Source: Ranitomeya imitator
Lineage: Eukaryota
Direction of reading: 5' to 3'
NCBI RefSeq assembly: GCF_032444005.1
Contig: NC_091285.1
Span: forward strand, 413,788,001-413,852,000
Length of the DNA stretch: 64,000 bases
The notes below the pieces were generated by a model. That model was not told where the DNA came from, made no database searches, and was given only the letters and a program-made list of their open reading frames with translations. The position numbers and the translations under genes were made by a program. Positions 8,080-48,553 of this stretch are shown piece by piece (the stretch's first letter is position 1; each line of letters opens with the position of its first letter).

Positions 8080-9345
8080 TTAAGACGGAATAATAACCGA
8101 TTTGTTTTACAGAGCAGTGGGGTGTAGGCTAAATAAATGGGATTTTTGGAAAGTGTTTATTTGGTATTGCAGCTTTATTCCAGTCACTTAAGCTTTAGTA
8201 AGAAGAGGTCCAGCACTTATACAAAGGGAAAACTAGTATGAAAGTGACTTTCAGGTGAACTGTTGTATATAAATATTAACTTTTCATGTGTTTTTTTTTT
8301 ACAGCATTATGATTTGTATTACAAAAATCTACACAAGAACGTCTATTTTGTTTTGTAGATGATTAACCATATAACCGGCCTGCACTGAGAATAACCGCAC
8401 TTACTGATTACACAGCCTTACACACTGTCAATTTGCACATATAGATGAATAACTGAAAGAAAACAGATGTCATACCTACACAAAATATAAAAACAGGAAC
8501 AAATGACTTCCATTACCAGTGTCTGGCAGTACTGTCTGCTTCTTAAACTGCACAGACTTTAAACAGTCTTTAAGAGTGTCCAATTTATCAGAGGCTGATG
8601 AGGTTTTAAGGCTGGCTATCCTATGTTGGCACCTCCTAGGACTTGGCTGGCTTGTTCCAGAGAAGTGAGGCACAATTTTGTTACTTTTTGTTGCCTGTCA
8701 AGTCATGTCCCTTTACAAGACAAGTGTCTAAACCACATATGGTGCAAGCCATAAGTTTGTTTTTCCCGTCTCCCATGACAGCACACCTGAGAGAGTGATC
8801 CGCCCAGTCAGGACAGGAAACCTACTGAAATAAAAGGGCGGTACCTCTCCCTCGCTTCAGTTGGGTTTCCTGTCCTGAACCCTTGTGCTGAAATCACGGC
8901 AGTATTGATTGAAGATCCACTTACCCACTCCTGTCCCGGCACTGGAAGCGCAGGCAGAGCGCCTGTATGTCGGCCTTCAGGAGATGATAGTGCGGTTCGC
9001 AGATCGTGCGGGCGTCGGTCCAGCACAGTCCGGACTCTTGAGGCCATTCTGTGTCTGCCACTCCGCTCTCTCCCCTCTGCTGGGCGACTTCTGGGCGCGC
9101 GGCTGACGTTGCGCGCAAGGCACGCTGGGAATGGGCGTGCCTGCGTGACGTCAGAGCGGCGCGCCGGATCCAAGATGGCGGCGCCCATGGAATGAACGCC
9201 GGAGGCATTACAGGCTTCCCAGCGGTGTACAGGAGGGGGAGAGGAGCGCAACGGATACCGGAAGAGGTGGGGAGCACTGAGGATGACCCTTTATTAAGGG
9301 TGAAGCTGCACAGAACGTCGCTCATTTCCATACAGCTTTCCAGAG

Positions 9346-10726
9346 ATGGAGGATCGTATGGAGCAGCAGCAAGAGCCCTTATCAGGTGATTCACCGGCTC
9401 ACCAACGTGCTAAGAATAGCCGCTCGAGTGGAAGGAGCGGCAATCGTCCTAGCCCGGACGTCACAGGACTCTTCAGCCTCCAGGAGGAATGTTCCCCGTG
9501 CTCCTAGTCCGCCTTGGAATCCGGCACCCTTTATGGTCAGCGGGCGGTGAGTGATCTACGTGAATGTCACTCTGGTGGTAATGGGCTACATTTTCTGTTA
9601 ACTTGGCAGGCGCCGAGGAAGGCTAGCTCCAAGTCTAAGAATAAGGAATGTGCCCTCTGTAGAGTTCCGTTGGCAGTCCAGTGGCAGAAGAGTCTTTGTA
9701 TAGATTGCATCCAAAAAACTATCCAGGAAGAGACCCCTGACATTGTCTCCCTGCTCCTCCTCCTCTAGGTCCTCTGGCTCCTCTTCAGATAGCGATGTTG
9801 GGGGCCGTCCGTGCTTTCTAACCGAGAACACGGACAAGCTAGTAAAAGCCGTCAGAGCTTCAATGGGCCTAAAATATGAAAAAGCGGCCAAATCCCTGGA
9901 GGACATTATGTTTGGGGGTCTAGAGGAAAAGAGAAAGCGTACCTTTCCAGTTAACCCCAAAGTAAAAGGCCTTATAGAAAAGGAATGGAGGAAGCCGGAG
10001 AAATCGGATAATCTACCCTTGGCTTCTAAAAGACGTTACCCCTTTGAGGAGAAAGATTCGGAGACTTGGGATAAGGTTCCAAAAATCGATGGTGCGGTAG
10101 CTATATCATCTAAAAAGTTATCCCTTCCCTTAGACTCTGGCGTGTTAAGGGATCCCTTAGACAAGAAAGCGGATGGATTCCTAAGACACACCTGGGAAGC
10201 GACCGCAGGGGGTTTAAAACTGGCAATCGCAGGGACCTGTGTCGTGCGTTCCCTTATTGTCTGGCTACAGCAGATAGAGGAGCAATTGAAATCTAAAGCT
10301 CCAAAGGATGAAATTTTAACTAATGTAACTATGGCTAAAGGAGCAGCAGCCTTTATAGCAGATTCTTCGGCAGACTCCGTAAGGCTGGCAGCTAGGGCAG
10401 CAAGTTTATCCAATGCGGCTAGACGTGCTCTCTGGTTGAAGAGGTGCCCGAGTGACTTACCTTCAAAGAATAGACTTTGTTCTATACCGTGTGATGGCCA
10501 TTTCCTCTTTGGTGAAAAATTATAAGACATTTTGGAGAAAGCAGGAGATAGGAAAAAGGGTTTTCCTCTCTTTCCAGTGGACTTTAGAAGACCTTATTTT
10601 CGGAGGGGCAAATTTAGTAGGGGCCGCACCCCGGGAGATAGAAGGAATTGGGACTCCAGAGACAGAAAGGGATCTGGATATATGTTTAAAGGTTCCTCGA
10701 CATCAGCGAAAAAGCCCTCCCAATGA
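9346..10726 (+). pseudogene. DIRS A gag (predicted exon 1 plus C2C2-finger exon), frameshifted
   Basis: CALCRVPLAVQWQKSLCIDC, then KLVKAVRASMG...RRALWLK...CSIPCDG. Internal TAA at 10523; natural stop TGA 10724-10726. Confidence 0.8.
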
Positions 10727-14814: not shown

Positions 14815-17060
14815 TTAGGGAGGGACCACTGCCTCTAGAACCCTTCTGCCAAAGGTGAGGTCTGAAGAGGAAGTCAGGTCTAGTTGGTAGTGTTTAAAGA
14901 ATGTGGACGGAGACGACCAAGTGGCTGCCCTACATATCTGTTCAATTGATGCTCCTGCTCTCTCTGCCCAGGAGGTCGCCACCGATCTGGTTGAATGAGC
15001 TCTGACTTCCTCTGGAATGGCTTCATTACTTGACGGATACGAGAGGATGATGGCGTCCCTTATCCATCTTGCAAGTGTGGCTTTCGATGCTTTATGCCCT
15101 TTGTTTGGACCCTGAAAACACACAGAGACCTATCCTTCCTATAGTCCCTTATGGCCGCAAGATATTGGACTAAACATCTTTTAACATCTAGTGTGTGTAG
15201 ATGCTCCTCTTTCCTATTTCTGGGATTTGGACAGAAAGAGGGTAACGAGAGCTCCTGCGATCTATGGAAACGTGATGCCACTTTAGGAAGGTAGGATGGA
15301 TCAGTTTTAACCCCTTCAAGTCGCGGCCCTTTTTCGTTTTTGCGTTATCATTTTTCACTTCCCAGAGCCATAACTTTTTTATTTTTCCGTCAATATGGTC
15401 ATGTGAGGGCTTATTTTTTGCGGGACGAGTTGAACTTTTGAACGACACCATTGGTTTTACCATGTCTTTTACTAGAAAACGGGAAAAAAATTCCAAGTGC
15501 GGTGAAATTGCAAAAAAAAGTGCAATCCCACACTTGTTTTTTGTCTGGCTTTTTTGCTAGGTTCATTAAATGCTAAAACTAACCTGCCACTCTGATTCTC
15601 TAGGTCATTACGAGTTCATAGACATCTAACATGTCTAGGTTATTTTTTATCCAAGTGTTGAAAAAAAATTCAAAACTTTGCTTAAAAAAAAAAAAAAAAA
15701 AAGTGCCATTTTCCGAAACCCGAAGCGTCTCCATTTTTCATGATCTGGGGTCGGGTGAGGGCTTATTTTTTGCGTGCCGAGCTGACGTTTTTAATGATAC
15801 CATTTCGGTGCAGATACGTTCTTTTGATCGCCCGTTATTGCATTTTAATGCAATGTCACGGCGACCAAAAAAACGTAATTCTGGCGTTTCGGATTTTTTT
15901 TCTCGCTACGCTGTTTAGCGATCAGGTTAATGCTTTTTTTTTATTGATAGATCGGGCGATTCTGAACGCGGCGATACCAAATACGTGTAGGCTTTTTTTT
16001 TTTATTTAGGATGGGGCGAAACTTTTATATTTTTTTTCATATTTTTAAAAACATTTTTTTTTTTTTACTTGTGCCATGCTTCAATAGCCTTGATGGGAGG
16101 CTAGAAGCTGGCATTGCCTGATCGGCTCTGCTACATAGCAGCGATCATCAGATCGCTGCTATGTAGCTGAAATGCAGGTGTGCTGTGAGCGCCGACCACA
16201 GGGGGCGCTCACAGCAGGCCGGCATTAGTAACCATAGAGGTCTCAAGGACCTCTATGGTTACCTTCCTGATGTATTGCTGACCCCCGATCATGTGACGGG
16301 GGTCAGCGATGACATCATTTCCGGCCGCAAGCGCCGGTTAAATGTCGCTGTCTGAGTTTGACAGCGGCATTTAACAGGTTAATAGCGGCGGGTGGATAGC
16401 GATTTCACCCGCCGCTATTGCGCGCACATGTCAGCTGTACAAAACAGCTGCCATGTCGCGACTTTGATGTGGGCTCACCGCCGGAGCCCACATCAAAGGG
16501 GGTGACACGGCATGCGCAGTAATAGTACGGCGCATGTTGTGAAAGGGTTAAGGATTACTCTGTCATCTAGTATGCGTGTCAGCGGTGGATATGCTGATAG
16601 GGCCTGCATGTCACTAATACTCCGTGCTGACGTTAGTGCCGCAAGAAGGGAGGTTTTGAGCAATATTATTTTTTTAAGAGGCTTGGGACAGTGGCTCAAA
16701 AGGTGGTTTGGTTAGTGCGGAGAGAACTAGATTTAGGTCCCAGGGAGGTGTAGTATGGTGTACCACTGGTCTAGATCTGGTCAAGGCCTTAATGAATCTC
16801 TTTACCCAGCGGTTCCCCGCCAAGTCACAGTTGTAAAGGGCCCCCAGCGCTGCTGGACTTTAAGCGTGCTCGTTGCTAAGCCTTTTTCTAGTACCTTCTG
16901 AATTGGGATTTCCTCAGATAAACTGGCACCTGATACTGATAAAAATCTCTGCCAAACCTTTCCATACGCCCTAGTAGTCACTGGTTTTCTACTTAGCAGA
17001 AGAGTGGAGACTAGATTTGAAGAGAACCCTCTCTTGATTAGAAGCTTCCTTTCAAATTCC
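14815..17060 (-). pseudogene. DIRS B tyrosine recombinase, split by the TTAA insertion
   Basis: ILDDRVILKTDPSYLPKVA is restored across the insert; RAHSTRSVATSWA, TFFKHY, VVPP*. Confidence 0.85.
15311..16547. mobile_element. Non-autonomous piggyBac-like element inserted in the DIRS B YR gene
   Basis: TTAA duplicated at 15307-15310 and 16548-16551; CCC...GGG ends. Removing it restores the YR frame. Confidence 0.85.
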
Positions 17061-18443
17061 AAGCCGTCATATGCAAGTTCTTTACTTGCGGGTGATTTAC
17101 CGGCCCCTGATATAGCAGGTTCGGAATCTCTGGAAGGACCCAAGGGTATGTTAAAGACGTTATCCTTAGCCATGGAAACCATGCTCTCTTTTGCCAAAAA
17201 GGAGCTATCATGATGACTCTCGCTCCATCCTCCCTGATCTTTCTCAACACTAAAGGAATTGGAGGAAACACATAGGCTAGGTGAAATTCCATGGAATTGA
17301 AAAGGCATCTAGGGTCACTGGGTTCCCGCACGGGTATGTTGAACAAAAGGCCTGAGTCTTTCGGTTTTGGTTGTTCACAAATAAATCTATTTCTGGGAGA
17401 CCCCACAATTGTACTATGTTGTTGAAGACTGCCTGATTCAATTCCCACTCTCCCTGTTTGAGTTGTGTTCGGCTTAGAACATTTGCAGTATGATTTTCCG
17501 ACCCCTTGATGTGAAGGGCTGATAGTGACGACAGATTGGTCTCTGCTAATAATAGAATGGATTTTGTCACTTCCATCAGTGTACGAGATCTCGTGCCCCC
17601 CTGGTGATTTAAATAGGCTACCACCACCCTGTTGTCCGATAATATCCTCACGTGATGGGAGTGTAGGAAGTGGATGAGTGCATATTTTACTGCTAGGAGT
17701 TCTTTCATGTTTGAGGAACCCAGTTTTTCTTCCTCCGACCATGGCCCTTGAGCAATTTGTCTACATGAGCCCCCAAGGACTCGCGTCCGCAGTTAGGGTA
17801 CCGTCACACAGTAGCATTTTGATCGCTACGACGGCACGATCCGTGACGCTCCAGCATCGTAACAATATCGCTCCAGCGTCGTAGACTGCTGTCACACTTT
17901 GCAATGTACGACGCTGGAGCGATAATTTCATGACGTATGTGCGATGTAGAAGCCGTTGGTTACTATGCGCACATCGTATACAATATCGTGCACACCTTTG
18001 TTACACCATGCCACCACAGCGGGACACTAGACGACGAAAGAAAGTTTCAAACGATCTGCTACGACGTACGATTCTCAGCGGGATCCCTGATCGCAGGAGC
18101 GTGTCAGACACAGCGAGATCGCTGGAACGTCACGGATATATCGCTGGAACGTCACGGATCGTGCCGTCGTAGCGATCAAAATGCCACTGTGTGACGGTAC
18201 CATTAGGGTTATAGATGTTGGCCATACCCATGGAACACCCCAGGTTAGATTGTGTGCATCCACCCACCAAGCTAGGGAATGTATTGTTTGCAAGGAGATT
18301 AAGTGCTTTTCTAAATCCCCTTTTAGCATAGAATCTGCTTCTAAGATCTCCCACTGGAGGTCGCTGGTGTGACTCTGGGCCCATTGGACCACTGGAAGAC
18401 AGGCTGTCATCGATCCCAGTATGGACATCGCTTTTCGTAGAGT
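17038..18443 (-). pseudogene. DIRS B RNase H / MT region (RT core deleted)
   Basis: TLRKAMSILGS, LTADASPWG (restored across the MITE), ELLAV, SDN, IDLF, YVFPP. Confidence 0.8.
17796..18202. mobile_element. PIF/Harbinger-like MITE in DIRS B RNase H
   Basis: TIR of about 55 bp starting GGTACCGTCACACAGT. TTA duplicated at 17793-17795 and 18203-18205. Confidence 0.9.
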
Positions 18444-19020
18444 AGCCTTTTCCCTTAAATTTTTTATCGTCCCATCCTTTCTGATTTTTTGGGGGGCCTT
18501 CTACGCATGAATTTTCTGTTCCGAAAGGACAGTTTATATAATTGGGAACCCCAGAAAGGCTTTTTTCTTGTCCCCCGCTTTCTCCAGGATATCATGTAAG
18601 GTAGGGCTAAATAGAAACTCCCCGTTGCAGGGTATGGAACATAATTTGGCTTTCGTTTGTAGGTCCCCGGCTAGCATTTGAGCCATAAAGCCTGCCTTGC
18701 TGCATTTGAAAAGGAAGCAGCTCTTGCCGCCAGTCTCACAGAGTCTATAGATGCGTCTGCTAGGAACCCAGGTGCTCCTTTCATTATTAAGATTGAATCT
18801 AATACCGATTCTCTCAGAGATCTATCTTTTAGTTGTGATCGTAAATGATCTAACTACACCATTAATGCTCTGGCGGTACATGTGGCGGCCATAGCTGCCT
18901 TTAGTTCCCACACCCCCCCCCCCCCCCCCTCAGCAGCATCCCAACAACCTTTTAGAAATACTTCAGCCTTCTTATTCATAGGGTCCTTTAGGGTCCCCAT
19001 ATCTTCAAAAGGTAAAGAAA
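18444..19020 (-). pseudogene. DIRS B gag, 3' part (5' part at 29805-30437)
   Basis: DVATAKASKKFSLPFEDMG reads continuously when DIRS C is removed. Confidence 0.8.
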
Positions 19021-19400
19021 CACCGGATTACGTACCGGTAATGCTCTTTTATAGAGCCAGGACAGCACCCACTTGAGAGAGGGGATCCGCCCCTAGGAAC
19101 AGGAAATCCTATGGAGAGAATAAAAGGGGCGGTCCCCCTCGCTCCCACAGTTGGGTTACAGAGATTGCGAGGAACCGCCCACCAGATTTTAGTAGGTCAT
19201 TCAATATTATCATTTATTAGTTAACTTAAGTATGGCTAACTACAAGAACCAAACACCCTTAACCGTGCTCCTAAATAAAAAACCTATAAGGGTGGGAAGT
19301 GAAGGTGCTGTCGTGGCTCTATAAAAGAGCATTACCGGTACGTAATCCGGTGTTTTCTCTTCGCCACGACAGCACCCACTTGAGAGACTTTCAGAGATAG

Positions 19401-20430
19401 TCATTTGGGAGGGATCACCGTGTTAAGAACTGATCTACCGAAGGACAAGTCAGATGAGGAAGACAAGTCAAATCTATAGTGATTATAGAAGGTAGTAGGA
19501 GAAGACCAGGTTGCGGCCTTACATATCAGTTCTTTTGGAACCTCCGCTCGTTCAGCCCAGGATGATGCTATCGCCCGGGTGGAATGTGCTTTTACGGTCT
19601 CAGGCGGATTCTCCCTTTTGGACGAATAGGCCAGACATATTGCATCTCGAATCCACCGAGATAAAGTACCCTTCGTGATTCCAGCTCCTTTTCTATGACC
19701 CTGGAAGGAAACAAAGAGAGCCCTGCTCTTCCTCCAGGCACTAGTCCTATCTAAATAGGCTATTATGGCTCTCCTCACATCTAATGTGTGGTATTTTTGT
19801 TCTTCCTGATTTGTAGGGTTATCATAGAAGGAAGGAAAATTTCTTGCGATCTGTGAAATTTAGTGCATGCTTTGGGTAAGTATGAAGGGTCTGTCTTTAG
19901 GACAACTATCTGGGAATATTGACATAAAGGGAGGATCTATCGATAGGTCCTGTATGTCACTTACTCTTTTCGCTGATACTAAGGCGACAAGAAGAGCTGT
20001 CTTGAGGGAGACATGTTTTATGTGAGCTGAATGTAGTGGCTCAAAAGGATGGTCTGTTAGAGCTTCAAGTACTAAATTAACATCCCAAGGTGGTACGTGG
20101 GGAATTTGAACTGTCTCTGACCTCTGGCATGCTGCAACAAACCTGGCTACCCATTTGTTACCTGCAATATCGTGACCATATAAAGCACCAAGCGCAGAAA
20201 TGTGTACTTTTAAGGTACTGACCGCCAGACCTAAATCGCGCCCTTTTTGAAGAAATTCTAAAACCATAGGAATATGAATTTCATTTGACAGGGCCGTCGG
20301 GTAGAGGTTTAGAAATTTTTTCCACACTCTTACATAGATGGAGGTAGTGGATTTCTTTCTACTTAACAGCAGAGTGTCAATCACTTTGTTTGAAAAACCT
20401 CTCATCTTTAGCAGCTGCCTCTCAAATTCC
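19401..20430 (-). pseudogene. DIRS C tyrosine recombinase, frameshifted
   Basis: SAKRVSDIQDL, KAHSTRAIASSWA, TWSSPTTFYNHY, VIPPK*. Confidence 0.88.
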
Positions 20431-22544
20431 AGGCTGTTAACCGTAGACCCTTCACATGAGGGTGGTTGAAGGGGCCCTGGAAAAGAAGATCCTGATCCTC
20501 CGGGAGGATCCATGGGTCCGAGATTGACATGGCTCTGAGCCAGAAAAACCATGGCCTCTTGGGCCAGAACGGAGCTATTAAGATCACGTTTGCTCTGTCC
20601 TCCCTTATCTTCCTGATAACTGTTGGAAGTAGTATCAACGGGGGAAAGGCATAAGCTTTCTGGAATACCCATGGCACTTGTAGGACGTCGAAGATATCTG
20701 GATTGTCGGATCGGAACAATGAAGCGAACGTTTTGACTTGCCTGTTGTGTCTTGTTGCAAAAAGGTCTATCTCGGGAGTGCCCCATTTTTTTACTATCAT
20801 GAAAAAGATACGACGACTTACAACCCATTCTCCTTGGTGGAGGGTGTGGCGACTGAGGAAATCTGCCTTCGAATTGTCGATTCCTCTCACATGCAGTGCT
20901 GATAGGGATAGAAGGTGCTCCTCTGCTATGGCTAGAATGTTGTCGGCTATAGACATGAGAGCTTCTGATCTTGTTCCCCCTTGGTGGTTTATATATGCAA
21001 CTGCTGTCATGTTGTCTGAAAGGATTCTTGTATGCGTTCCGTGTAGCTGCAGAAGGAATTTAGATAAGGCATGATAGATAGCTTTCAGCTCTTTTTTATT
21101 AGAAGAATCATCCGATTCCCTAAGAGACCTCAGACCTTGCACTATTTGATCTCCTAAGTGTGCTCCCCAACCACTAGGACTGGCATCAGTGAAAATAGTT
21201 TTTGAAGGTTTAACCACCCAGGGAACCCCACTGGTAAAATTATTCGGATCTAACCACCAGGTGAGAGATTGTAACACGTCTGTTGGTAAAGAAACAAGAC
21301 TATCTAACCAGCCCTGTAATCTTTCTTCCTCCTGAAGTATTGTATACTGTAATTTTCTACTATAGAATTGGGCCCACGGAACAGCTGGAATACATGATGT
21401 GAAGGAACCAAGAGGAGACATACCTTCTCTTAGGGAAATTAGGGGGTTGTTAATCATCGATTGTACCTTGTTTATAATTGCTATTTGTTTAGACTTGGGA
21501 AGAATGCACCTTTGATTTATAGAATCAAGAATAAGTCCTAGAAATTTTTGATGGGTTGTGGGGGACAATCTAGATTTTTCCCAGTTTACTAACCACCCTA
21601 ATTCCTGTAGGGACGAAATTGAATCAAATGAACGTTGATGACATTGAGAAAGGGAGTTCCCCACTATCAAAAAGTCATCTAAATATGGTATTATGAGGGT
21701 GTCTTAACCTCAAATATAACATTACCTCTGACATTAGTTTTGTGAAGACTCTAGGGGCTATTGATAGTCCAAAGGGCATTGCTGTATATTGATAATGCCG
21801 TATTTGACCTTTCATCATAACTGCCACCCGTAGATATTGTTGATGCTCAATGAAGATTGGAAGATGGTAATATGCATCTTTAAGGTCAAGAACTGCCATG
21901 AAGCAATGGGGAAACAGAAGCTTAGTAGTTGACCGAATAGATTCCATTTTAAAAGTTTGGTTCTCTAAGAAGACGTTTAGTCTCCTAAGGTTAATTATTG
22001 TTCTAAATGATCCGTCTGGTTTCGAAATCAAAAATAAAGGGGAATAAAAACCCCTTCCTTTTTTACGAAAAGGGACTTCCACTAATACTCCTTTGGACAG
22101 GAGAGTTATTATTTCCTGCTGTAAGGCCTCTTGTTGTGATTGAGACCTTAAGTAAGTCAATAAAAATGAGTCTGGAGGGACTTGGGTAAATTTTAATTTC
22201 AGACCCGTAGTTATAAGGCTAGTTGCCCATGGATTAGAAGTTGACAGCCATTGTGTAGAGAAGGACAACCTACCACTAACGGGTAGATCTGTCCTAACGG
22301 GGTTTATCCTCAGGTTTGAAAGGGCGTTTTCCGAAAAAAGCTCCTTTTTGTTTAAAGTCTTTATTAGCCCAACGGTCCTGGTTTTTATAGTCTCGTCTTC
22401 TGTTAAACATGGGCTTTCGGAACGCTCTCCTATAGGATGGAAGATAAGTGTTATTGGGGAACCCCTTCTTCCTCTCACCCGCTTTGGTAACAATTTCATC
22501 CAACTTAGTACCAAATAGGTACTCACCCTGGCATGGCAGACCAC
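20408..22544 (-). pseudogene. DIRS C RT / RNase H / MT, one frameshift near 21675
   Basis: ORFs 21675-22544 (FYSPLF, LDLKDAYYH, PFGLSIAPRVF) and 20408-21670 (FTDAS, ELKA, SDN, IDLFA, YAFPP). Confidence 0.9.
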
Positions 22545-23073
22545 ATAACTTAGACTTCGTTTGGGGATCTCCTTTCCACCCCTTTAGCCACAGGGCGCGG
22601 CGAGCCGCATTGGTCAGACCTGCTGATTTGGCTGCTAATCGTATAGAATCAGCTGAAGAATCCGCTAAAAAGGCAGTAGCTCCTCTAATCAATGGTATGG
22701 AAGACATGAGTTTATTCCGGGAAAGGCCACCTTTCAATCCTTCTTCTAAATCATTCAACCAGACTAGCATGGACCTAGCAGTGCATGTAGCCGAAATAGC
22801 CGGTCTGAAAGCTCCTGTACAGGACTCCCATGCTCTTTTTAGAAGGGAATCAGCTTTCCGGTCAAGCGGGTCTTGCAAAGATCCCGACTTCTACAGGCAG
22901 TAAAGATTTCCTAGAAGTGGATGCCACTGCCGCATCTACCTTCGGGGCTTTTGACCATTTGGAGAAATCCTAGTCATCAAAGGGATAGTGTCTTTTTGAC
23001 GAAGACTGCAACCCTCTTTGTCCCTGGCTTTCCCACTCTTTTTTGACTAAATCCTTTATTGCTGGAATAACAG
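22294..23073 (-). pseudogene. DIRS C gag, 3' part (5' part at 28530-29214)
   Basis: DPLDRKAD...RRALWLKGWKGD...CGLPCQG. RKRPSFPVIP is restored when D is removed. Confidence 0.85.
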
Positions 23074-23467
23074 GAAAAAGTGTAGTTACTCACCGATAAC
23101 GGTGTTTCTCAGAGCCCATGACCGCACTACCAGAGAGAGGGGATCCGCCCTTCAGGGACAGGAAACCTACAGGATAAAAGGGCGGTACCTCTCCCCTGCA
23201 TCAGTTTTGTTTACAGAGCATCGGAGGTCCTCCAGGTTAGTCACAACAACACAAAAAATGTGCAATTTATTCATAATGCTTAACAGTGAACACCGTGTCT
23301 ATATGTAAAAACCACTTCACACAATAATGTGCTCACCGCACACGTGATGAGGGGGGGAATAAGCAGGTGCTGTCATGGGCTCTGAGAAACACCGTTATCG
23401 GTGAGTAACTACACTTTTCTCAGTCGCCCATGACAGCACTACCAGAGAGAATTACAGAGATCATTGC

Positions 23468-26368
23468 TTAGGGAGGGACCACAGCCTGCAGAACCCTTCT
23501 CCCGAAGGTTAGGTCAGACGAAGAGGCTAGGTCTAAGCGGTAGTGTCTGAAGAAGGTTGAAGGTGATGACCAGGTGGCCGCCTTACAGATCTGATCTAAT
23601 GGTACCTCTGACCTTTCGGCCCAGGAGGTCGCCATAGCCCTTGTAGAATGTGTCTTCAGTCCTTGCGGAATGGCGTTCCCGGAGGATGAGTACGCCAAAG
23701 CTATTGCGTCTGTGACCCATCGAGCTATAGTGCCCTTAGAGGCTTTGAGTCCTTTCCTGGGTCCCTGGAAGCAGATAAAAAGAGACCCTTCCTTCCTATA
23801 CTGCTGGGTGATTTTTATGTATTGGACCAGGCACCTTTTAACGTCTAGTGTATTGAATTTCTCTTCCTTCTTATTTTTAGGGTTTTGACAGAAAGAAGGA
23901 AGGATTATCTCTTGGGATCTATGGAATGTTGACGCAACTTTCGGTAGATAGGAAGGGTCTGTTTTTAATATAACTTTATCATCCAGAATTTGTGTAAATG
24001 GAGGGTTAACGGACAGGGCTTGGAGGTCACTTATCCTACGGGCCGAAGTCAGGGCTATTAGGAGGGCCGTTTTAAGAGAAAGAATTTTAAGGGGTACCGA
24101 TTCTATGGACTCAAACGGGGAGTCTGTTAAGGCTGACAGAACTAAGTTCAGATCCCAGGTTGGTAATCTACTTATAGTTAGCGGTTTAGACCTTGCGGCT
24201 GCTCTGATAAACCGTATAACCCAAGGGTTGGCTGCTATGTTCTCACAGTATAAAGCTCCTAGAGCTGCTATCTGTACCTTTAAGGTACTTACCGAAAGGC
24301 CTAAGTCCTTCTGTAGAAATTCTAGTATTTCAGATACTGGAACACCATCTTGCAATTTTACCCCAGAGGAGGACAAAATTTTTTTCCATGTTTTGCCGTA
24401 TATTTTTGTGGTCACAGGTTTTCTACTTTTCATTAGTGTAGACACTAGCTTGTCAGAAAACCCTCTTTCCCTCAATAGTGACCTCTCAAAAGCCACGCTG
24501 TCAGATGGAGATTTTCTGATTGAGGGTGGAACACCGGTCCCTGAGACAAGAGGTCCGGAAGATCCGGAAGCACCCAAGGATCGGTGATTGATAACATCCT
24601 CAGCCATGAAAACCAGGCTCTCTTGGGCCAGAAGGGGGCTATCAAGATGAGTCTGGATTTGTCCTGTCTGATCTTTCTCAGAACTGCTGGAATGAGAATA
24701 GTAGGGGGAAATGCATACATTAGGGTCTGTGTCCAGGGTATTGTGAATGCATCCACAGCCTGAGGATTCCCCCTGGGATCTAGGGAACAGAAAGTTTCCA
24801 CTTTCTTGTTGTGCATATTGGCAAAGAGGTCTATTACAGGGATCCCCCATAGATCTGTGATTTTGTTGAATATGCCCTGATTTAGAGACCACTCCCCCTG
24901 CTTTAGTAGGGTACGACTCAGAAAGTCCGCTTTTTGGTTTTCCACCCCCTTTATATGTAGGGCTGATAGGGACAGGAAGTTGTTTTGTACCAGGCTGAAA
25001 ATTTCGGAGGTAGTTTCCATTAGTGATTGAGACCTGGTTCCCCCCTGGTGGTTTAAGTAAGCTACTACTACTTTGTTGTCCGAGAATACTCGGACATGAT
25101 GGCCTTGTAGTTGGTCTAGGAAGTACAGTAGTGCATGATTCACGGCTCTCAACTCTTTTTGATTTGAGGAAGATCTGAGCTCCTGATTTGTCCATATCCC
25201 CTGAGTGACTCTGTCGTCTAGGTGAGCCCCCCACCCTGTGGGACTTGCGTCTGTGGTAACTATCTGAGACCCCTCTATTACCCAGGGAATCCCTTTTGAT
25301 AAGTTGTTGGGATTCAGCCACCAGCCTAGGGAATGAATAGTGGGTAAACTTAGAGTCATTCGACTTTCTAACCGTCCTCCCAGTATTTTTTGGTTGCTTA
25401 AAATATCCCACTGAAGTGTCCTTGTGTGGAGCTGTGCCCACTGAACGGCTGGGAGACAGGCAGAGAGGGACCCCAGTAATGACATTGCCTTTCTTAGAGT
25501 CATGGTAGGGTTTGCACGCGCTTGTGACACTAGGCGGATTATGTTTTGTTTTTTCTTGTCTGGTAGGTAACAAACCTGAGAACTTGAGTCCAAGGTGAGA
25601 CCCAAGAATTCTTGAACCTTGGTTGGTTCCAGTTTTGATTTTTTGAGGTTCACCAGCCATCCCAATTTTGTTAGGGTGTCTATGACTCTGTCGCATTGTT
25701 GACGGCAGAGTTCGGCCGAGTTGCTCACAATCAGAAAATCGTCTAGATATGGAATAATCAAGACGTCTTCCTCTCTCAGATGTGCCATCATCTCCGCTAT
25801 CAACTTTGTGAAGATGCGGGGAGCAATTGATATGCCAAAGGGAAGAGCCCTGTATTGGTATTCCCTGGTCTGTCCTTTTATGACTACTGCCAGTCTGAGG
25901 AATTTCTGAGAGGTCTTGTGGATGGGGACGTGATAATATGCGTCGCTGAGATCTAGAACTATCATAAAACAGTTGGGAAACAGATTTTTTATCGTTGATT
26001 TTATTGACTCCATTTTGAATCTGTAGTTTTTTACATAGGTATTCAACTTCCGTAAGTTTATTATAGTTCGGAAGGTTCCGTCCGGTTTGGGAACCAGGAA
26101 CAATGGAGAGTAGAATCCCTTCCCTCTTTCCAGAGGGGGGACTTCTTGGATGACAGACTTGTTTACTAGTTTTACAATTTCTAGTTCCAGAGCTTCTTGT
26201 TGATGAGGAGATGATCTCAGCGGTGTTATCACATAATTCCGTGGGGGTAGGGATAGAAATTCTATGCGAAGCCCTTCTCCTATTAATTTCAATATCCAAG
26301 GGCTGGTCGAAATTTTCTCCCAGGCCGGGAGGAATTGAGTCAATCTCCCTCCCACCCTGGGGAAGACG
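23468..26368 (-). CDS. DIRS D long ORF with C-terminal tyrosine recombinase; N-terminal about 630 codons overlap RT
   Basis: Open from the TGA at 26371-26369 to 23468. SARRISDL, KTHSTRAMATSWA and TWSSPSTFFRHY give an R/HxxR/W/Y catalytic set. Confidence 0.9.
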   Translation of the reverse strand, partial: RLPQGGREIDSIPPGLGENFDQPLDIEINRRRASHRISIPTPTELCDNTAEIISSSTRSSGTRNCKTSKQVCHPRSPPSGKREGILLSIVPGSQTGRNLPNYNKLTEVEYLCKKLQIQNGVNKINDKKSVSQLFYDSSRSQRRILSRPHPQDLSEIPQTGSSHKRTDQGIPIQGSSLWHINCSPHLHKVDSGDDGTSERGRRLDYSISRRFSDCEQLGRTLPSTMRQSHRHPNKIGMAGEPQKIKTGTNQGSRILGSHLGLKFSGLLPTRQEKTKHNPPSVTSACKPYHDSKKGNVITGVPLCLSPSRSVGTAPHKDTSVGYFKQPKNTGRTVRKSNDSKFTHYSFPRLVAESQQLIKRDSLGNRGVSDSYHRRKSHRVGGSPRRQSHSGDMDKSGAQIFLKSKRVESRESCTTVLPRPTTRPSCPSILGQQSSSSLLKPPGGNQVSITNGNYLRNFQPGTKQLPVPISPTYKGGGKPKSGLSESYPTKAGGVVSKSGHIQQNHRSMGDPCNRPLCQYAQQESGNFLFPRSQGESSGCGCIHNTLDTDPNVCISPYYSHSSSSEKDQTGQIQTHLDSPLLAQESLVFMAEDVINHRSLGASGSSGPLVSGTGVPPSIRKSPSDSVAFERSLLRERGFSDKLVSTLMKSRKPVTTKIYGKTWKKILSSSGVKLQDGVPVSEILEFLQKDLGLSVSTLKVQIAALGALYCENIAANPWVIRFIRAAARSKPLTISRLPTWDLNLVLSALTDSPFESIESVPLKILSLKTALLIALTSARRISDLQALSVNPPFTQILDDKVILKTDPSYLPKVASTFHRSQEIILPSFCQNPKNKKEEKFNTLDVKRCLVQYIKITQQYRKEGSLFICFQGPRKGLKASKGTIARWVTDAIALAYSSSGNAIPQGLKTHSTRAMATSWAERSEVPLDQICKAATWSSPSTFFRHYRLDLASSSDLTFGRRVLQAVVPP
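24472..26355 (-). CDS. DIRS D RT / RNase H / methyltransferase-like polyprotein (627 aa, no ATG before the RT core)
   Basis: Uninterrupted ORF with LDLSDAYYH, PFG, YLDD, TTDAS, ELRA, SDN, IDLFA, YAFPP. Confidence 0.93.
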   Translation of the reverse strand: MGGRLTQFLPAWEKISTSPWILKLIGEGLRIEFLSLPPRNYVITPLRSSPHQQEALELEIVKLVNKSVIQEVPPLERGKGFYSPLFLVPKPDGTFRTIINLRKLNTYVKNYRFKMESIKSTIKNLFPNCFMIVLDLSDAYYHVPIHKTSQKFLRLAVVIKGQTREYQYRALPFGISIAPRIFTKLIAEMMAHLREEDVLIIPYLDDFLIVSNSAELCRQQCDRVIDTLTKLGWLVNLKKSKLEPTKVQEFLGLTLDSSSQVCYLPDKKKQNIIRLVSQARANPTMTLRKAMSLLGSLSACLPAVQWAQLHTRTLQWDILSNQKILGGRLESRMTLSLPTIHSLGWWLNPNNLSKGIPWVIEGSQIVTTDASPTGWGAHLDDRVTQGIWTNQELRSSSNQKELRAVNHALLYFLDQLQGHHVRVFSDNKVVVAYLNHQGGTRSQSLMETTSEIFSLVQNNFLSLSALHIKGVENQKADFLSRTLLKQGEWSLNQGIFNKITDLWGIPVIDLFANMHNKKVETFCSLDPRGNPQAVDAFTIPWTQTLMYAFPPTILIPAVLRKIRQDKSRLILIAPFWPKRAWFSWLRMLSITDPWVLPDLPDLLSQGPVFHPQSENLHLTAWLLRGHY

Positions 26369-27614
26369 TCACTTGGGGGGGGGGGGGGGGGGTTCTATCT
26401 CGAGGGGAGTTACCAAAAAGGAAACCTCTGTCTTTCCTTCTCCCGTCATCCCATCGGTTTTGCTCCCTCGGTGGTCTCCTTCTAAAAAATTTTCTGTTCC
26501 GAAAGGGCCGTTTATTATATGTTGGGGCCAGGATGGGAAAACCTTTCTTTTTATCACCTGCTTTTTGCAGGATATCGTCCAAAGTCTCTCCAAAGAGGAA
26601 TTTACCTTCACAGGGGATAGAACACAGTTTGTGTTTAGTTTGTAAATCCCCCGGCCAGCTTTTTAACCATAGGGTTCTACGTGCCGCATTTGAGAGAGCT
26701 GCCGATTTAGATGTTAATTTAATGGAGTCGGCCGAAGAGTCTGCCAAGAATGCTGCGGCTCCTCTAATCATAGGGATGGAGTCTAAAATTTTATTCCTAG
26801 GGACCCCATCTCTAATCTGTTTCTCTAAGTTGTCGACCCAAATCATTAAGGAACGCGACGTACATGCCGCTGCTATAGTTGGCCTTAAGCATCCTCCGGC
26901 TGACTCCCAGGCCCCTTTAAGAAAGGTATCTGCTCTTTTGTCAAGGGGGTCTTTCAAGGTTCCCATATCCTCGAATGGTAATGCGAACTTTTTCGAGGCC
27001 TTAGCTACCGCAACATCGAGTTTGGGGGCTTTATCCCACGAAACCGAAGCTTCTTCTTCAAAGGGGTATTTCCTTTTAATAGAGGGAACCGATGCATTTT
27101 TTCTCTCAGGTTTCTCCCACTCCTTCTTAATTAACGTTTGAATATTTTCATTAAGAGGAAATACCTTACGCTTTTTTTGGGAAAGACCACCAAACATAAT
27201 GTCTTGTACCGTTTTATCAGGACGAGGATCTAACACCCCCATCGTCGATCTTACAGCCTTTACAAGGCCGTCAACCTCATCTAGGGGGAAGCAATGACGA
27301 CCCCCACTTTCACTGTCTGAAGAGGAGGGGGATGAATCTTGCGTATCCGAATTTTTACTCTCGGAGCTAGAAGAGTCGGAATTTCTATCAGGAGCTGATT
27401 TCTTAGTAGATCTCCTGTCGCTTTTAAGGGAGTTAAACACCGTCTCAACCTCCGCTTTAATTACAGAGCGTAACTCAGAGGCGAAGTTCGGGGTCTCCTC
27501 ACAGAGGACTCGCTCAATACAGGAGTCGCATAATTTCTTCTCCCAGGACTGTGGTAATGCTTTCTCACATAAGGGGCATGTTCTATTTTTCATCTTCCCC
27601 GTTCTCTTCCTTGC
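26340..27614 (-). CDS. DIRS D gag main exon (C2C2 zinc finger at N-terminus)
   Basis: 417-aa ORF with CPLC-x12-CDSC. Preceded by a TAG acceptor (AG at 27616-27615). An 18-G run at 26375-26392 shifts the last codons. Confidence 0.85.
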   Translation of the reverse strand, partial: ARKRTGKMKNRTCPLCEKALPQSWEKKLCDSCIERVLCEETPNFASELRSVIKAEVETVFNSLKSDRRSTKKSAPDRNSDSSSSESKNSDTQDSSPSSSDSESGGRHCFPLDEVDGLVKAVRSTMGVLDPRPDKTVQDIMFGGLSQKKRKVFPLNENIQTLIKKEWEKPERKNASVPSIKRKYPFEEEASVSWDKAPKLDVAVAKASKKFALPFEDMGTLKDPLDKRADTFLKGAWESAGGCLRPTIAAACTSRSLMIWVDNLEKQIRDGVPRNKILDSIPMIRGAAAFLADSSADSIKLTSKSAALSNAARRTLWLKSWPGDLQTKHKLCSIPCEGKFLFGETLDDILQKAGDKKKGFPILAPTYNKRPFRNRKFFRRRPPREQNRWDDGRRKDRGFLFGNSPRDRTPPPPPQVTSSPGWEGD

Positions 27615-27699
27615 CTAAGATAAGGGAGAAGGGGAACCCCAATTACAAAAAATGAGCTTTCACGAAGATCACTCACCAATCTGACGCAGCCACAGGTAC

Positions 27700-27912
27700 C
27701 GGTTCTGGAGGAGGGGTAGGATCCTGAGGCGTATGATCCGTGGCCGGCCGCAGGTTTACCGCACTGGAACTACATGGTGTGGAATGGCTACTGGATCGGG
27801 AACTTCGGTTGCTTGCAGAAGTTCTCTTCCCCTGGGCATCCGGTTTCTGGCGCTGACGATGGCGCTGCTGCTGCTGCGGTGGCGGCTGGAGCTGCTGATC
27901 GCTGTCTTCCAT
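27700..27912 (-). CDS. Predicted DIRS D gag exon 1 (MEDSDQQ...PPPEP, 71 aa)
   Basis: ATG-initiated Ser/Pro/Arg-rich ORF. The phase-0 donor CCG|GTACCT joins in frame to the main exon; similar exons exist in A and C. Confidence 0.55.
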
Positions 27913-30900
27913 CTTGGAACAGCATGCAGCAAGGGTCTGTCAAGTGCACCTTCTTTTTAAAGGGTGGCGCTTGGTCCCCTCCCCCTGTGGCTGCACTGTT
28001 TGGGGGAAGCGTTTTTTTTTTTTCCTTCCCTAGCCACTGCGCATGCGCGCGCAGCCAGACAACCCGGAAATGAAGGATTCCGGTTCCGGGGCAGCGCCAT
28101 CTTGGTGTAGCCATTTACCTCACTGCCCCCGAACCGGAAGTTCCTCCACTACTTCCGATGCGGCGCCATCTTGGATCCTGGCGTCCTGCGGCAGTGTGCT
28201 GGAGCGCTCCAACTCCTATCGGAGTGGCGGCGGCGCTTCCCCCCGCTCACGCTTCCGGACCCCTCGGTCGAAGTTGTGGCGGCCTCGGATACCGGACCAG
28301 CCGTGGCAGGGGCCTCCCCGCCGCCAGAACTCGGACTGGCCGGTTCCGGATCTTCGCCAGGTTAGTCTTCTGGTCGTCCATGCCAGGTACCGTCCGAGAA
28401 GGTTCCCCGTCAGGGACAGGAAACCAAACTGATGCAGGGGAGAGGTACCGCCCTATTATCCTGTAGGTTTCCTGTCCCTGAAGGGCGGATCCCCTCTCTC
28501 TGGTAGTGCTGTCATGGGCGACTGAGAAAGAAGGTCTTTTTCTTTCAGACAGGCCAGCAAACATAACGTCCTGTGGCGTTTTAAGGGTTTTTGCATCTTC
28601 AATACCCATGGTGTTACATACTGATTTGACTAAATTGTCAATACTGTCTGTAGGAAAGCATGTATCCTGCTCACCCTCTGAGGATATAAACTCTTGGGAA
28701 CCGTCCGAATCTTTATCCTCAACATCCGAAGATTGTTCAGACCTAGGAGAATTATATCTTTTCCTACTCTCTGGAATTTTATCCGAGCTTCGAAAGGCTC
28801 GTAATTCTTCCCTAATCATACTTCTTATATCTTCCGACCTTACTGAAGACTCCTCACGTAAGGTGGATTCGATGTATGACTGGCACAGCTTCTTTAAATA
28901 AGTATCCGGGAGCGGCTGAGAGCATAAAGCACATTGCTTATGTTTGGATTTCCCTGTTCTTTTTTCCTAGGGAATTAGATAAAGAGGGAAGTATAATCAG
29001 CCTAATAGGGTAGACAGACACTCACCCCAGTGAAGCTGTTGTCACAGTACCGGCTGAAGAGGAGGAGACGGAGGCACAGATGGAGGAGCCGACCGGTCCG
29101 ACCTCTTTTCCCTGGCACTCTTAGAAGAAGACCTGCGGCTGCTGCTTTTCCGGCTACCAGGCGTTATAGCGGTGACTTCAGATGAAGGCAACACTGTGTC
29201 CTGGGGAGATGCCATGATGGACGCCTGGTATCAGCGCCGGCGTCCTTTTGTAATGGGGGCCGCCATCTTCTTCCTGCCGCACCCGGAAGTGACCACTACA
29301 TCCGGGTTGCGGCTCTGCTGTACGCGCCTGCGCCTCCATCCAGCGTTCACGCAGGCGCCGTCCTCCTCCTGTATCACCCTGGAAGTTGTGGTAATACTTC
29401 CGGGGGACAAATACCGGGCCACACGCTGCCTGTACGCCACCGAAGATGGCATCACAGGTTCTCTTACCCCAGTGATCTGGTCCCTGCAGGTCGGCTGGAT
29501 GGACATCCGTGAGCCAGGCGACTCCCCGACCCTGGCCTCACGGTACCTGCCAGCAGAGGGGGGAAAGCTGTCACAGGACCCCCGACGCTGCTTCCAGCTC
29601 TGGAGCCCTTGCCGTCCCTATACAGGTAAACTGCGCAAGCGGCATCCAGGCTGGGCATCCTCTTCTCTCCAGGTGTCTCCCGTAGGAACAGGAAACCAAC
29701 TGTGGGAGCGAGGGGGACCGCCCCTTTTATTCTCTCCATAGGGTTTCCTGTTCCTAGGGGCGGATCCCCTCTCTCAAGTGGGTGCTGTCGTGGTGAAGAG
29801 AAAAATTTTTTTGACGCTTTTGCAGTGGCGACATCCAGTATTGGTGCCTTACTCCAGGAAGAACAGGATGGTCGTCAAAAGGATATTTCCTTTTCGGGGT
29901 TAAGAAGACTTTTTTGTCTGGTCTCTTCCATTCTTTTTTTTTTTTTTATTAGGGCATGTATTTTATCATTTACTGGAAATGCTCTTCGTTTCCTTTGTAC
30001 TAGACCGCTAAACAAAGTCTTGCGCGTTTATTTGGATTTGGTCTCTACTAGTCCCATGGTTGTTCTTACCGCTTTTACTAAAGTGTCTGTCTCATGAATG
30101 GGAAAGCAATTGCAGGCCCCCCTCCGTGGAAGAAGAGGACGATAGAGAGGAGAGCGAACTGTCTGAATTAGAGGTATCGCTATCTTCTTCGCTGGAACTT
30201 GGCACCGGGGATCTATGTTTGGACCTATGTTTCCTTTTTAAACCTTTGGCACTTTTTAACGCATCTTCTACCTGGGATTTAATTAACTGTTTTAAGTCAG
30301 ATGCGAATCTTGGGGACTCTTCAGAAATGGTATTTTCTATGCATATGGCACAGAGTTTTTTTTACCCATGTAGCGGGCAGTTCTACGGAGCAGATCGGAC
30401 ATACTCTGTGCCTGGTTTTCGTTGTACATTTCTTCCCCCAAGAAAAACACAATAAAACCCCTTTTTAGGAAATGAGCATTCACGATCACTTAGCCTCCTA
30501 TTTTAAGGGGGATACCGGTTCTGGCGTAGGAGTAGCTTCCTCGACTTGAACCGTTACTGGTCTTCCGGATCCACCCGAGCCTCTGCTACATTGAGATCCT
30601 GAACTGCGATGCTGGGAAGGAGTATCATGCTGTCGTCGCTGCGGTTGGCGCTTTTTCGGCGGGGACTGCAGAATTTCTTCTGCCGGTTGCTCCTTCTCGG
30701 GCCGGGATCACACGCGAGATACGGCCGAGTCTCGCAGGTGAAAACCCAGCTCTGGCACCGGCACTTGGGAGCAGAGCGTGCAGCCGCACAGCAATACATG
30801 GAGCCGCACACTCCACTCTGGAGTGCAGGCACCAGAGCTTGGTTTTCACCTGCAAGACTCTGCCGTATCTCGCGTATGTGTGATCCCAGCCTCACTCATG

Positions 30901-31588
30901 GTGAGCCTTTTCCCAGAGCACCAGCCACTCTGTTTTCTGCTTTCTTTTATGCATAAGCGGGACGGCACACCGCTGGATCCATTACCCAGAGATGCCGTGC
31001 GCCGCCCCTGAAGTGACCCCTGCGACAAGCATTCTGGGACTACCAGAATGCTTTGCAGTCGGTACGCGTGTGCGCTCATTCTCCGGCGTCCTCGCTTCCT
31101 GAAGGGAGCATGGCCATCACCCGCCTCCAGACCACGCCGAAGGAGACCACCACCGCACCCGACCAGCCTCAGCCCTGGGTTTACAGGCGCACAGCGGAGG
31201 AAGCGCCGCTCCATGACGCCCAGCAGGAGAACCGACGATAAGACACCAGGTGACCGCCATCACCTATTACCGGCTACTAGCTTTTTTTTATAGGGAGAAG
31301 CAGACTGGATCTTTCTTCTCTGCTTCTCCCCCGCTCACACACAAGGCCCACGACCCTGGGATCGTGGCCTTTGGGGAGGGATATCCACCGTGTCCAAAGC
31401 AGGGCCCCCCACTGCCAGTAATCGCACCGATGGACCCCCGGCATCCCACGACGAATATGCTGCAGGTTCCCAGTCAGGGACAGGAAACCGAACTGATGTG
31501 GGAGAGAGGTACCGCCTTTTTCACCTGTAGGTGTCTTGTCCCTGAGGGAGGATCACTCTCTCTCTCCATGGTGCCGTCATGGGGGTAA

Positions 31589-32007
31589 GAGAAAAAGAGG
31601 TTAGATTATACTCACCTAGGGGCGGTCCCGTTCGATGGGCGTCCTCTTCTTGCCTTCATGCTCCGGCAGAGCAAAGTACTGAAGTGCACAGGCGCCGGAA
31701 AAGGTCAGAGGCCTGACGCCTGCACACTGCAGTACTTTGCTCTGCCCTCAACAGGGCACACAAAGTACGCCTGCGCAGGAGCCGTGGCAGGAAGACAAGA
31801 ATAGCACATCATCCTATGAATATGGGAGGCCCTGACTGCGACGCCCATTGGACTGCACCGCCCTCCCATGTGAGTATAATCTAACCTCTTTTTCTCATCT
31901 TTCAGGATACATCGGGGGCTTATCTACAGCATTACAGAATGCTGTAGATAAGCCCCTGATGCCGGTGGGCTTAGCTCGCCTTCGATTTTGGGGATGACAG
32001 GTTCCCT
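31589..32007. mobile_element. Remainder of the T2/Kolobok-like MITE split by DIRS B
   Basis: Resumes GAGAAAAAGAGGTTAG and ends TGACAGGTTCCCT. Confidence 0.85.
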
Positions 32008-39512: not shown

Positions 39513-39589
39513 CTAAAGATGACCGCCAGTCTATCCAGAAACAGTGTAGGGTCAGACGATATACCATTATTAGGATCCTGTGAGAGAAG
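39513..39589 (-). CDS. TNPO3: Transportin-3 exon (77 nt)
   Basis: [25 protein letters not shown]; AG/GT ends. Confidence 0.95.
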
Positions 39590-39639
39590 CTGAGTAAAAT
39601 GAGCAGAAAATCAGAAAATGCACTCTATATTCACACACC

Positions 39640-40263
39640 CAACAGACGCTCCCCCAAACAGACTCTCCCACAATTTTCCAACAGGCGCTCCCCCAAACAG
39701 ACGCTCCCACAATTTTCCAACAGACGCTCCCCCAAACAGACTCTCCCACAATTTTCCAACAGACGCTCCCCCAAACAGACGCTCCCACAATTTTCCAACA
39801 GACGCTCCCCCAAACAGACGCTCCCACAATTTTCCAACAGACGCTCCCAGCAGACGCTCCCCCCAAATCTCCAACAGACGCTCCCCCCAACTCTCCAACA
39901 GACGCTCCCCCCAACTCTCCAACAGACGCTCCCCCCAACTCTCCAACAGATGCTCCCCCAACTCTCCAACAAACGCTCCCCCCAACTCTCCAACAGACGC
40001 TCCCCCAACTCTCCAACAGACGCTCCCCCCAACTCTCCAACAGACGCTCCCCCAACTCTCCAACAGACGCTCCCCCCAACTCTCCAACAGACGCTCCCCC
40101 AATTCTCCAAGACGCTCCCCCAACTCTCCAACAGACGCTCCCCACAACAGACGCTCCCCACAACAGACGCTCCCCACAACAGACGCTCCCCACAACAGAC
40201 GCTCCCCACAACAGACGCTCCCCACAACTCTCCAACAGACGCTCCCCCCAACAGACGCTCCCA
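39640..40263 (+). repeat. Compound minisatellite with core CAACAGACGCTCCCC
   Basis: Blocks of about 39-bp, 24-26-bp and 16-bp units, all built on the same core. Confidence 0.95.
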
Positions 40264-40590
40264 CTTTCCTTAAAACCATAAGCAAACAATCACAATATAG
40301 CCAATGATCAGAACTGACAGCGGATTTTGTGTCAGGGGTCTTGAATGTTTTGTACTGGTGAGACAGGATGCCAATACCCCTTTAAGACTACACCCAAAAT
40401 ATTTCTGTGCAGATGCTCTTGACCATGAAAATTACTTTTTTCCTTTGATATCACACTTTTGACCTCTACATAGAACACTCTGAATATTAGTAAAAAGTTT
40501 GCTAGTTGCATACAAATCATTCAATCATTTCATCTGAATTACATATGAGAAAGCAAGCCAATCATAAATATATAGGACAGAATTTCTCAC

Positions 40591-46713: not shown

Positions 46714-48553
46714 GATGCTAATGCAGACAAAATTACAGGGTCTATATAGAGGTGACCAGTGACTGAGAGGGCGCTGCAGAGGGGAGCTAACGATGTCTCC
46801 TTACCCCGGTCCTGTGTCCCGCTATCCAGGAGAGACGAACTGCTGGGGTGTTCACTCTGAGAGGAGGAAGCCGGCTGCACGTGGGCCACTGACGCGCCAG
46901 AGATGCGACAGGCAGGAGCTGCGGCGCTGAGGAGAGGGACCAAGATGGCCGCCGAGATCAGGAAGAGAAATCTCGGCGGCTGTGAGAAGCGCCAGGAGCG
47001 GGGGGCGGCGCCACAGACACTGGCTGGAGTGGGCGGAGCTTAGCGGCGGCGACCAGCGGCTAGGCCGAAGCCGGGGACTAAATTTGCGGCCTCGGCCCGG
47101 CGCGCGGTCGCGAGCGCCGGAAAGGGACAGGGACCGCCCAAAAAGCCTGCAGATGGAGCCCAGGGATGAGGAGCCCTCCTGACCGCCGGCGACACCCCCC
47201 CCCCAGTCCCCCCACCGGGCACTTACCCTGAAGATGGAGGTGAGAGGGAACCATGGTGCCATATATAGGAACGGTGCAGGGGTTGGGAAGCCTTCTATCC
47301 ACCTACCCCACATGGGGGGTGGAGAGGAACCGTCCACCACCTGAGTCACAAGTCACATTGGTGATGCAGTGTGGTCTGCACGGACGCCACTGGGATAAAG
47401 CCACTGTACAGCCGAGGGTAGAACCTGGTGGACAGGGCAGATGTCCGGCAATAAAAAGGCCTGGCTGCAGAGGAGGATACTGGAGGTAGGAACACCAGTG
47501 CTCGTCTGTATAAGGGGAGATCGGGGCCCATTAGGGGAGAAACCGTCGCCCAAAAAAAGGACAGCTCAGGCAGTGGCTCCCACGTCGCAGGAGAGGATAC
47601 GGTGAGGTGAAACTCCCGTGCTCGCCTGTTGTTGGTTCGGGGGAGATCGGACCTTAGAAGAATCCGTCGCCCCCTTCGACCGGAATAGATGAAAAAAGAG
47701 AGAAAAAATCAGTGTGCCTCCTACGGACACTAAGCTTAAACTGGGTCTCTGCATGCCAGCATGAGGGTGTATACTGCAGGGGAGGAGCTAACCCTTTTTT
47801 GTCTCAGCTTAGTGTCAGCCTCCTAGTGACAGCAGCATAACCCATGGTCCTGTGTCCCCCAATGAGGCGAAGGAGAAAGTCCCTTTAAAGGATTTAACTA
47901 CTTTGGGATCTCACACTTTGACTTATAAGTGGACCCACTGGCCTACGAAAAGCCAGGCCAAACGTTTGTTTTGTGGGATCCTGGCATGCAAAGTGGGATC
48001 CTATTAAATGTTGCTTTATGCACTAAGTCAGCGGTTAAATAAATGGTCAGCCCCAGTCTAGTGATAGGTACTGTTTAAATCTCTAAAATAAATGTTAAAA
48101 AAATAATTGGCGAACAACTGGACTTAAATGGAGTCACATGAAAAAAAAGTTATGTTAAATCTAACCGTTACAATTTGCTCAGCATAATGTGTTGTTTAGT
48201 GGTGCTTATTAGTCGTCAGGATGCAAAATGGATAGTACACGGACCATTGGTCAGTGTATTTAAAAAATTAAAAATACTAGCCGTATTAGTTTTTGGAATT
48301 AGACTTTTTAATAAAATTCAACAAGTGTGTTACCAAAATAACTATATTATGCAGATATTATCTGTGTGGCAACCATTGTTTTTACAGGCACATTGCTATT
48401 ATTAACATACATAACTACATTTTGGACTTTTATTATATTTTGAATCCTTGATATATAAAGCAGATGACAAACAGACGACATACAGATGGCAAGATGGATG
48501 AAAAATGGACGATTTTTTTTTTTTTATACACTCGTGAACTTATATCACCTCAC

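Follow-up and report, generated by a model that had tools for sequence, protein, structure and literature searches.

The 64,000-nucleotide stretch of the Ranitomeya imitator genome analysed here (NC_091285.1, positions 413,788,001 to 413,852,000 of the forward strand; referred to as the window) contains five DIRS1-like retroelements, A to E, whose gag gene had been predicted to be interrupted near its 5' end by a spliceosomal-type intron. If this intron is spliced, reverse transcription should sometimes return spliced RNA to the genome. Indeed, we found 16 genomic copies from 8 DIRS1-like families (A 6, C 1, D 1, I 1, J 3, K 2, K' 1, M 1) which lack exactly the predicted intron, and in which exon 1 is joined to gag in frame and reads through into the C2C2 finger. 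The presence of precise intronless copies in the genome indicates that spliced RNA exists. The donor and acceptor named in the original prediction for A, C and D are thus borne out, and its view that spliced RNA is the source of full-length Gag is supported. We regard the gag intron as practically certain in A, C and D, and as only slightly less secure in B; no intronless copy of B was found, and the B-like family J has three.

The intronless copies were recovered with search patterns consisting of one exon anchor on each side and 0-30 nucleotides (nt) of slack (four copies of A and the single copies of C and D), by DNA search (two further copies of A) and through protein searches (I, J, K, K' and M). 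Reversed-pattern controls gave no matches, and despite the slack no junction other than the predicted one was found in the pattern searches for A, C and D. When the anchors were set an intron length apart, which was done for A and D, they retrieved 111 intron-bearing copies of A compared with 4 intronless ones (4/115), and 74 compared with 1 for D (1/75). Intronless copies thus do not dominate, and loss affects about 1-3.5% of copies. Three further copies that seemed contiguous (L228, L256, L257) still contained the intron. In extended comparisons of eight intronless copies with intron-bearing relatives, six differ by the intron alone, with other gaps of at most about 30 nt, L221 has further deletions, and L132 has further insertions and one gap. 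L132, a full-length intronless copy of D, lies inside the gag gene of another DIRS element. Because four intronless copies of A keep the DIRS termini and no second shared gap was seen, spliced RNA of near full length must have passed through DIRS replication occasionally.

All coordinates and motifs of the original prediction were found as described when re-read in the sequence (Table 1). The predicted intron follows the pattern CCG/ACG|GTA...AG in phase 0, with a size of 74-110 nt across families. A GT donor, a pyrimidine tract and an AG acceptor are present in 15/15 representatives, which were chosen by these very ends; the unselected count is that of the A loci, where the donor is GT in 23/25. 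The acceptor of B is AG in 19-20 of the 22 loci listed, and copies of this family also keep GTAAGT. That the window shows GC at the A donor and GG at the B acceptor is therefore due to changes in individual copies. Exon 1 of A is open and a multiple of three in 43/50 family copies, and the damage previously noted in this exon is a frameshift of the window copy. In D, 24 of the 27 copies in which the acceptor motif was found (out of 30) are in phase 0, exon 1 varies in length by steps of three, and intron lengths are 83-85 nt. The clean in-frame joining claimed for C and D holds, both having an open exon 1 that ends in phase 0. With its open frame, length steps of three and a preference of shared variants for third positions, exon 1 behaves as coding sequence.

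The claimed conservation in five families stands for A, C, D and very likely B, but in E the candidate could not be equated with the same intron. It is located upstream of the ATG, in contrast to A to D, and has no inner donor (see below); a diverged relative (L252) keeps the donor and has no AG. Whether the E intron is real is, in our view, an even question. The sequence TATATA occurs inside it, about 45 nt before the ATG, and might be read as part of a promoter.

The original prediction did not include a second, better-matching donor (D2, G|GTRAGT), which is located 20-25 nt inside the intron in 15/15 representatives and 22-25 nt downstream of the outer donor (D1) in A to D. The distance from D2 to the AG is 53-67 nt in 14 representatives and 90 nt in K'. 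D1 matches the donor consensus at 5-6 of 9 positions compared with 7-8 for D2. D2 is out of frame with gag in A to D and unused in 16/16 junctions, all of which employ D1; three matches to D2-derived copies of A were all point mutants. In A, B, D, H, I, J and M, D2 is followed by the motif GA.CT.CGTGAA.G. Pairing of this motif with the genome's own U1 small nuclear RNA (snRNA) was no better than that of shuffles in 12/12 cases; the U1 snRNA genes (L263) form a tandem array on C1 with a spacing of about 977 nt. Introns of the C/K type (L057, L238, L258) lack the CGTGAA motif and share a predicted stem, which encloses D2 and overlaps a branch-point-like CTGA.

Variants found in at least four copies, pooled over A to D, affect 15/330 intron columns compared with 59/260 third and 51/520 first and second positions of exon 1, in counts that treat related copies as independent and thus make derived P values too small. 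In A alone, shared variants occur in 0/86 intron columns, with private changes being similarly frequent in the intron (41/86) and in exon 1 (73/198). The intron is thus at least as conserved as first and second codon positions.

In a tree of A to which 23 close intron-bearing relatives had been added (six loci with long branches or insertions were left out, and L161 had no exon 2), the six intronless copies are scattered and correspond to six changes, of which at least four are forced. An apparent clade of four intronless A copies was an artefact of the first tree, and was gone once the close intron-bearing relatives were included. The intronless copies of J (3/3) and K (2/2) are also unclustered, with weak support. 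Intron loss has thus occurred repeatedly, independently and recently, and because the intronless copies are scattered tips among intron-bearing relatives, it is intron-bearing masters that carry the lineages.

We consider it fairly probable that spliced RNA of this two-exon gag is the message, and that unspliced RNA is the preferred template through a cis-acting signal in the intron. The weak D1, together with a stronger but unproductive D2, would keep splicing incomplete; spliced RNA would yield Gag, with the enzymes made by readthrough or frameshifting at the gag stop. The proteins would then work in trans and recognise unspliced RNA by a signal of the packaging or priming type in the intron, and copies derived from spliced RNA would lose this signal and rarely found lineages. 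The third open reading frame (ORF; 967-974 codons) lies in the same frame after the gag stop, the reverse transcriptase (RT) ORF begins in the +1 frame, and in A and D neither has a start codon near its beginning. The gag stop is TGA-C in A, D and E (45232-45234 in E; loci L172, L174, L175, L177, L180), TGA-A in B and TAG-G in C. The TGA-C context, the frames and the lack of early starts suggest that the recombinase is made by readthrough and RT after a +1 shift.

The original prediction had termed this arrangement retrovirus-like regulated splicing. Spliced RNA for Gag and the dominance of intron-bearing copies stand, but the likeness to retroviruses needs correction because the exon-1 frame, when read on into the intron of unspliced RNA, meets a stop after 3-10 codons in 15/15 representatives. 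Retroviruses have a major splice donor with a packaging signal downstream of it, and their unspliced RNA is the Gag-Pol message; the negative regulator of splicing of Rous sarcoma virus is a decoy donor. The elements described here would resemble them in a putative signal inside the intron marking unspliced RNA as genome. They differ in that retroviral unspliced RNA makes Gag, whereas here its gag frame is closed.

Several observations weigh against this two-RNA interpretation. An in-frame ATG is present seven codons into exon 2 of D and another one inside the intron of H, so that unspliced RNA might give a shortened Gag. No spliced joint was among the 15 joints listed from four runs (255 more lay outside the listing), whose RNA status is guessed, with E and B outside the mapped stretch; by itself this speaks neither for nor against splicing. 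No intronless copy was found among 51 copies of E (the chance of zero being 0.16-0.50 at the rates of A and D), and no contiguous one among 97 scored copies of H. With respect to a structural signal, the C/K stem is invariant in the three introns, with no double-sided changes, and no RNA structure was common to the nine introns compared. Finally, masters are rare among copies in general, so that a scatter of tips would be expected even if intronless copies have no defect, and the rarity of intronless copies might do no more than reflect a low proportion of spliced RNA.

The last point leads to the main rival explanation, which we judge distinctly less probable: the intron might act solely as a passive throttle, with a few percent of the RNA being spliced to limit Gag, genomic copies mirroring the RNA pool, and intron conservation reflecting sequence that represses splicing. 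The weakness of D1 relative to D2 agrees with this, as do the full-length intronless copies, which indicate that spliced RNA can complete replication, and unspliced contigs spanning the D intron in 4/4 runs (contigs only, from runs taken as RNA by guess). However, at a loss of 1-3.5% per round a neutral intron would survive 100 rounds with a probability of 0.03-0.26, yet all 15 representatives keep it, and RefSeq gene predictions splice many such loci in three dendrobatid species.

Alternatively, D2 could be a working donor to downstream acceptors, producing the RT and recombinase messages, so that intronless copies could not express the enzymes. This would account for the quality and conservation of D2 and for the absence of early ATGs from the RT and third ORFs, and A and D have a CAG just past the gag stop that would fit D1 for the third ORF and D2 for RT. 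We nevertheless consider it unlikely. A stop is located between D1 and D2 in B, C and J, the downstream CAG has no pyrimidine tract in B and C, and the position of the third ORF in frame after the gag stop fits readthrough. No genomic copy joins D1 or D2 to the downstream CAG, and none in A joins D2 to anything; a model with two donors and two acceptors was therefore rejected on the evidence of genomic DNA.

A predominantly DNA-based route, by recombinase movement or duplication, with introns kept as in Cryptons and only the few intronless copies passing through RNA, would explain intron retention without regulated splicing. It is very improbable in view of the intact RT ORFs, inverted termini and internal complementary regions and of the amplification of DIRS-1 through complementary DNA (cDNA) (PMC7192593), and it leaves D2 and the conservation of the intron unexplained. 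That there is no intron, and that the intronless copies are DNA deletions at G/G microhomology, is refuted for practical purposes: the junctions are ambiguous by one base on each side and the joints listed included no RNA junction, but 16 events in 8 families of different sequence all end at GT...AG with the frame restored, and patterns allowing slack gave no other junction.

Returning to the interpretation of spliced RNA as message and unspliced RNA as template, there are parallels in what is known of DIRS-1, whose RT acts in trans and in which a reporter intron near the 5' end stays partly unspliced in cDNA (PMC7192593). Introns also protect from HUSH-type silencing (PMC8770142), which could add a benefit here; by itself, such protection would not explain unspliced templates. 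A more far-reaching version, which we put forward tentatively, is that the intron is an 80-nt switch in which D1 and the decoy D2 determine how much RNA is spliced, all proteins come from spliced RNA, and the intronic motif admits unspliced RNA alone to reverse transcription in trans; its native acceptor would trap host exons, and would have created mammalian LAP2alpha and ZNF451-L2a.

Intron-keeping retroelements as such are known already. In BARE1 copia the unspliced RNA can be translated, and splicing shortens its one ORF so that Gag alone is encoded (PMC3735527); in the frog elements, by contrast, splicing creates the gag ORF. Ogre, CRR Gypsy and Drosophila copia (PMC3735527) and Penelope (PMC3846280) likewise keep an intron despite RNA copying, but belong to other orders, have other intron positions, and encode an integrase or endonuclease instead of a tyrosine recombinase. 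Xenopus DIRS1-like elements are alike in having three overlapping ORFs, a LAP2alpha gag, RT/RNase H, inverted termini and an internal complementary region, whereas in the available main texts (PMC9210276, PMC3266345) neither "intron" nor "splic" occurs. A native DIRS gag intron is likewise undescribed in the accessible parts of PMC9210276, PMC3266345, PMC3783388, PMC6681497, PMC4157794, PMC12477816, PMC9341512, PMC5890265 and PMC13465315. Our searches of the open literature, with subscription journals, supplements, Repbase and Dfam outside their scope, gave no account of such an intron. The abstract of Goodwin and Poulter from 2004 is said to report apparent spliceosomal introns in some DIRS-like and Ngaro-like elements; that work is not known to contain a precise-loss test, an inner donor or a lineage analysis. 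New in the present analysis are the proof of the intron by repeated precise loss, D2 with the motif that follows it, and the agreement with the acceptor that had been inferred for LAP2alpha.

The LAP2alpha exons of mammalian TMPO and ZNF451 derive from a DIRS gag, and the colonising sequence was inferred to carry a splice acceptor (PMC4495291). The native acceptor of the frog elements, which is demonstrated by precise loss, fits this prediction for the DIRS source and also explains host-gag chimeric gene models in frog annotation. In P0003, P0123 and P0176, predicted models fuse RING finger, alpha-2-macroglobulin and methyltransferase domains to gag exactly at the acceptor of A or C, resembling LAP2alpha exon capture. 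RefSeq already splices the intron-bearing loci as unnamed genes, with models that match them exon by exon and are split exactly at D1 (P0031/L155, both A sites, and P0010/L193). In two other dendrobatid species, models P0039 and P0072 read through the pyrimidine tract into exon 2, unlike the spliced models of their clusters, an indication that those species have the same intron. A metagenome scan for other hosts gave 115 pattern matches, none of which was confirmed.

No primer is known for DIRS elements (PMC7192593), and an 80-nt intron conserved like coding sequence is a small, testable target for work on their ORF expression, template choice and priming. The repeated precise losses represent a natural experiment on intron loss through cDNA.

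Table 1. Positions of gag exons, introns and associated features of the DIRS1-like elements in the window
Feature	Position	Strand	Remarks
A gag exon 1 (Gln/Ser/Arg/Pro-rich)	9346..9523	+	frameshifted in window copy
A gag intron, 86 nt, phase 0	9524..9609	+	AG 9608-9609; donor GC in window copy, GT in family
A inner donor D2 (GTGAGT) and motif GA.CT.CGTGAA.G	9547..9566	+	no genomic copy spliced from D2
A gag exon 2 start: basic patch and C2C2 finger	9610..9712	+	no in-frame ATG
Whole element D	23077..28533	-	inverted termini, internal complementary region; sits inside element C
D long third ORF (recombinase-type), 966 codons	23468..26368	-	no Pfam match in D
D RT/RNase H ORF	24472..26394	-	first Met 127 codons in
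D gag exon 2 (C2C2 finger, LAP2alpha domain)	26340..27614	-	PF11560, E 5e-14
D gag intron, 85 nt	27615..27699	-	inner donor D2 at 27676; intron absent from 1 copy (L132), present in 74
D gag exon 1, 71 codons, open, ends phase 0	27700..27912	-	length differs by multiples of 3 between copies
C gag intron, 84 nt	28967..29050	-	inner donor D2 at 29025; intron precisely absent from 1 copy (L192)
C gag exon 1, 55 codons, open, ends phase 0	29051..29215	-	
B gag intron, 78 nt	30438..30515	-	ends GG; acceptor and D2 (30493) decayed in window copy
E candidate intron in 5' untranslated region, 87 nt	46718..46804	-	ATG 4 nt after; predicted from sequence, unproven

The assignment of A to E to DIRS1-like elements is based on inverted termini, internal complementary regions, a LAP2alpha-domain gag and RT. 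The inverted terminal repeats are 91% identical in A (8773-8869 vs 13950-13856) and 95% identical in D (23105-23212 vs 28529-28421), and an internal complementary region of D (23367-23450) matches both termini, as is likewise the case in A copies. In Pfam searches, the LAP2alpha domain was above the cut-off in the gag of both D and E, as was RVT_1 in these two elements; RNase H-type matches exceeded the cut-off in D only. For a tyrosine recombinase, there was a weak Phage_integrase match in E (E 2.8e-5, below the cut-off) and none in D; a long ORF lies at the expected place. For a methyltransferase domain there was no Pfam match at E 0.001, a dedicated profile not being used. At first look, the A to E families comprise hundreds of candidate copies in the host genome of about 6 Gb, and the closest protein records are from Ranitomeya and other frogs. 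The region 16800-31600 consists of nested DIRS elements, with D within the gag of C, whose body resumes at 23076 past the insertion, and C apparently within the gag of B. The E family (42200-47800) is very young, with 38/40 scored matches being 99-100% identical over 421 nt, and its copy in the window has three intact ORFs. A tandem array of 24-, 39- and 16-nt units at 39570-40300 gives rise to long low-complexity ORFs.
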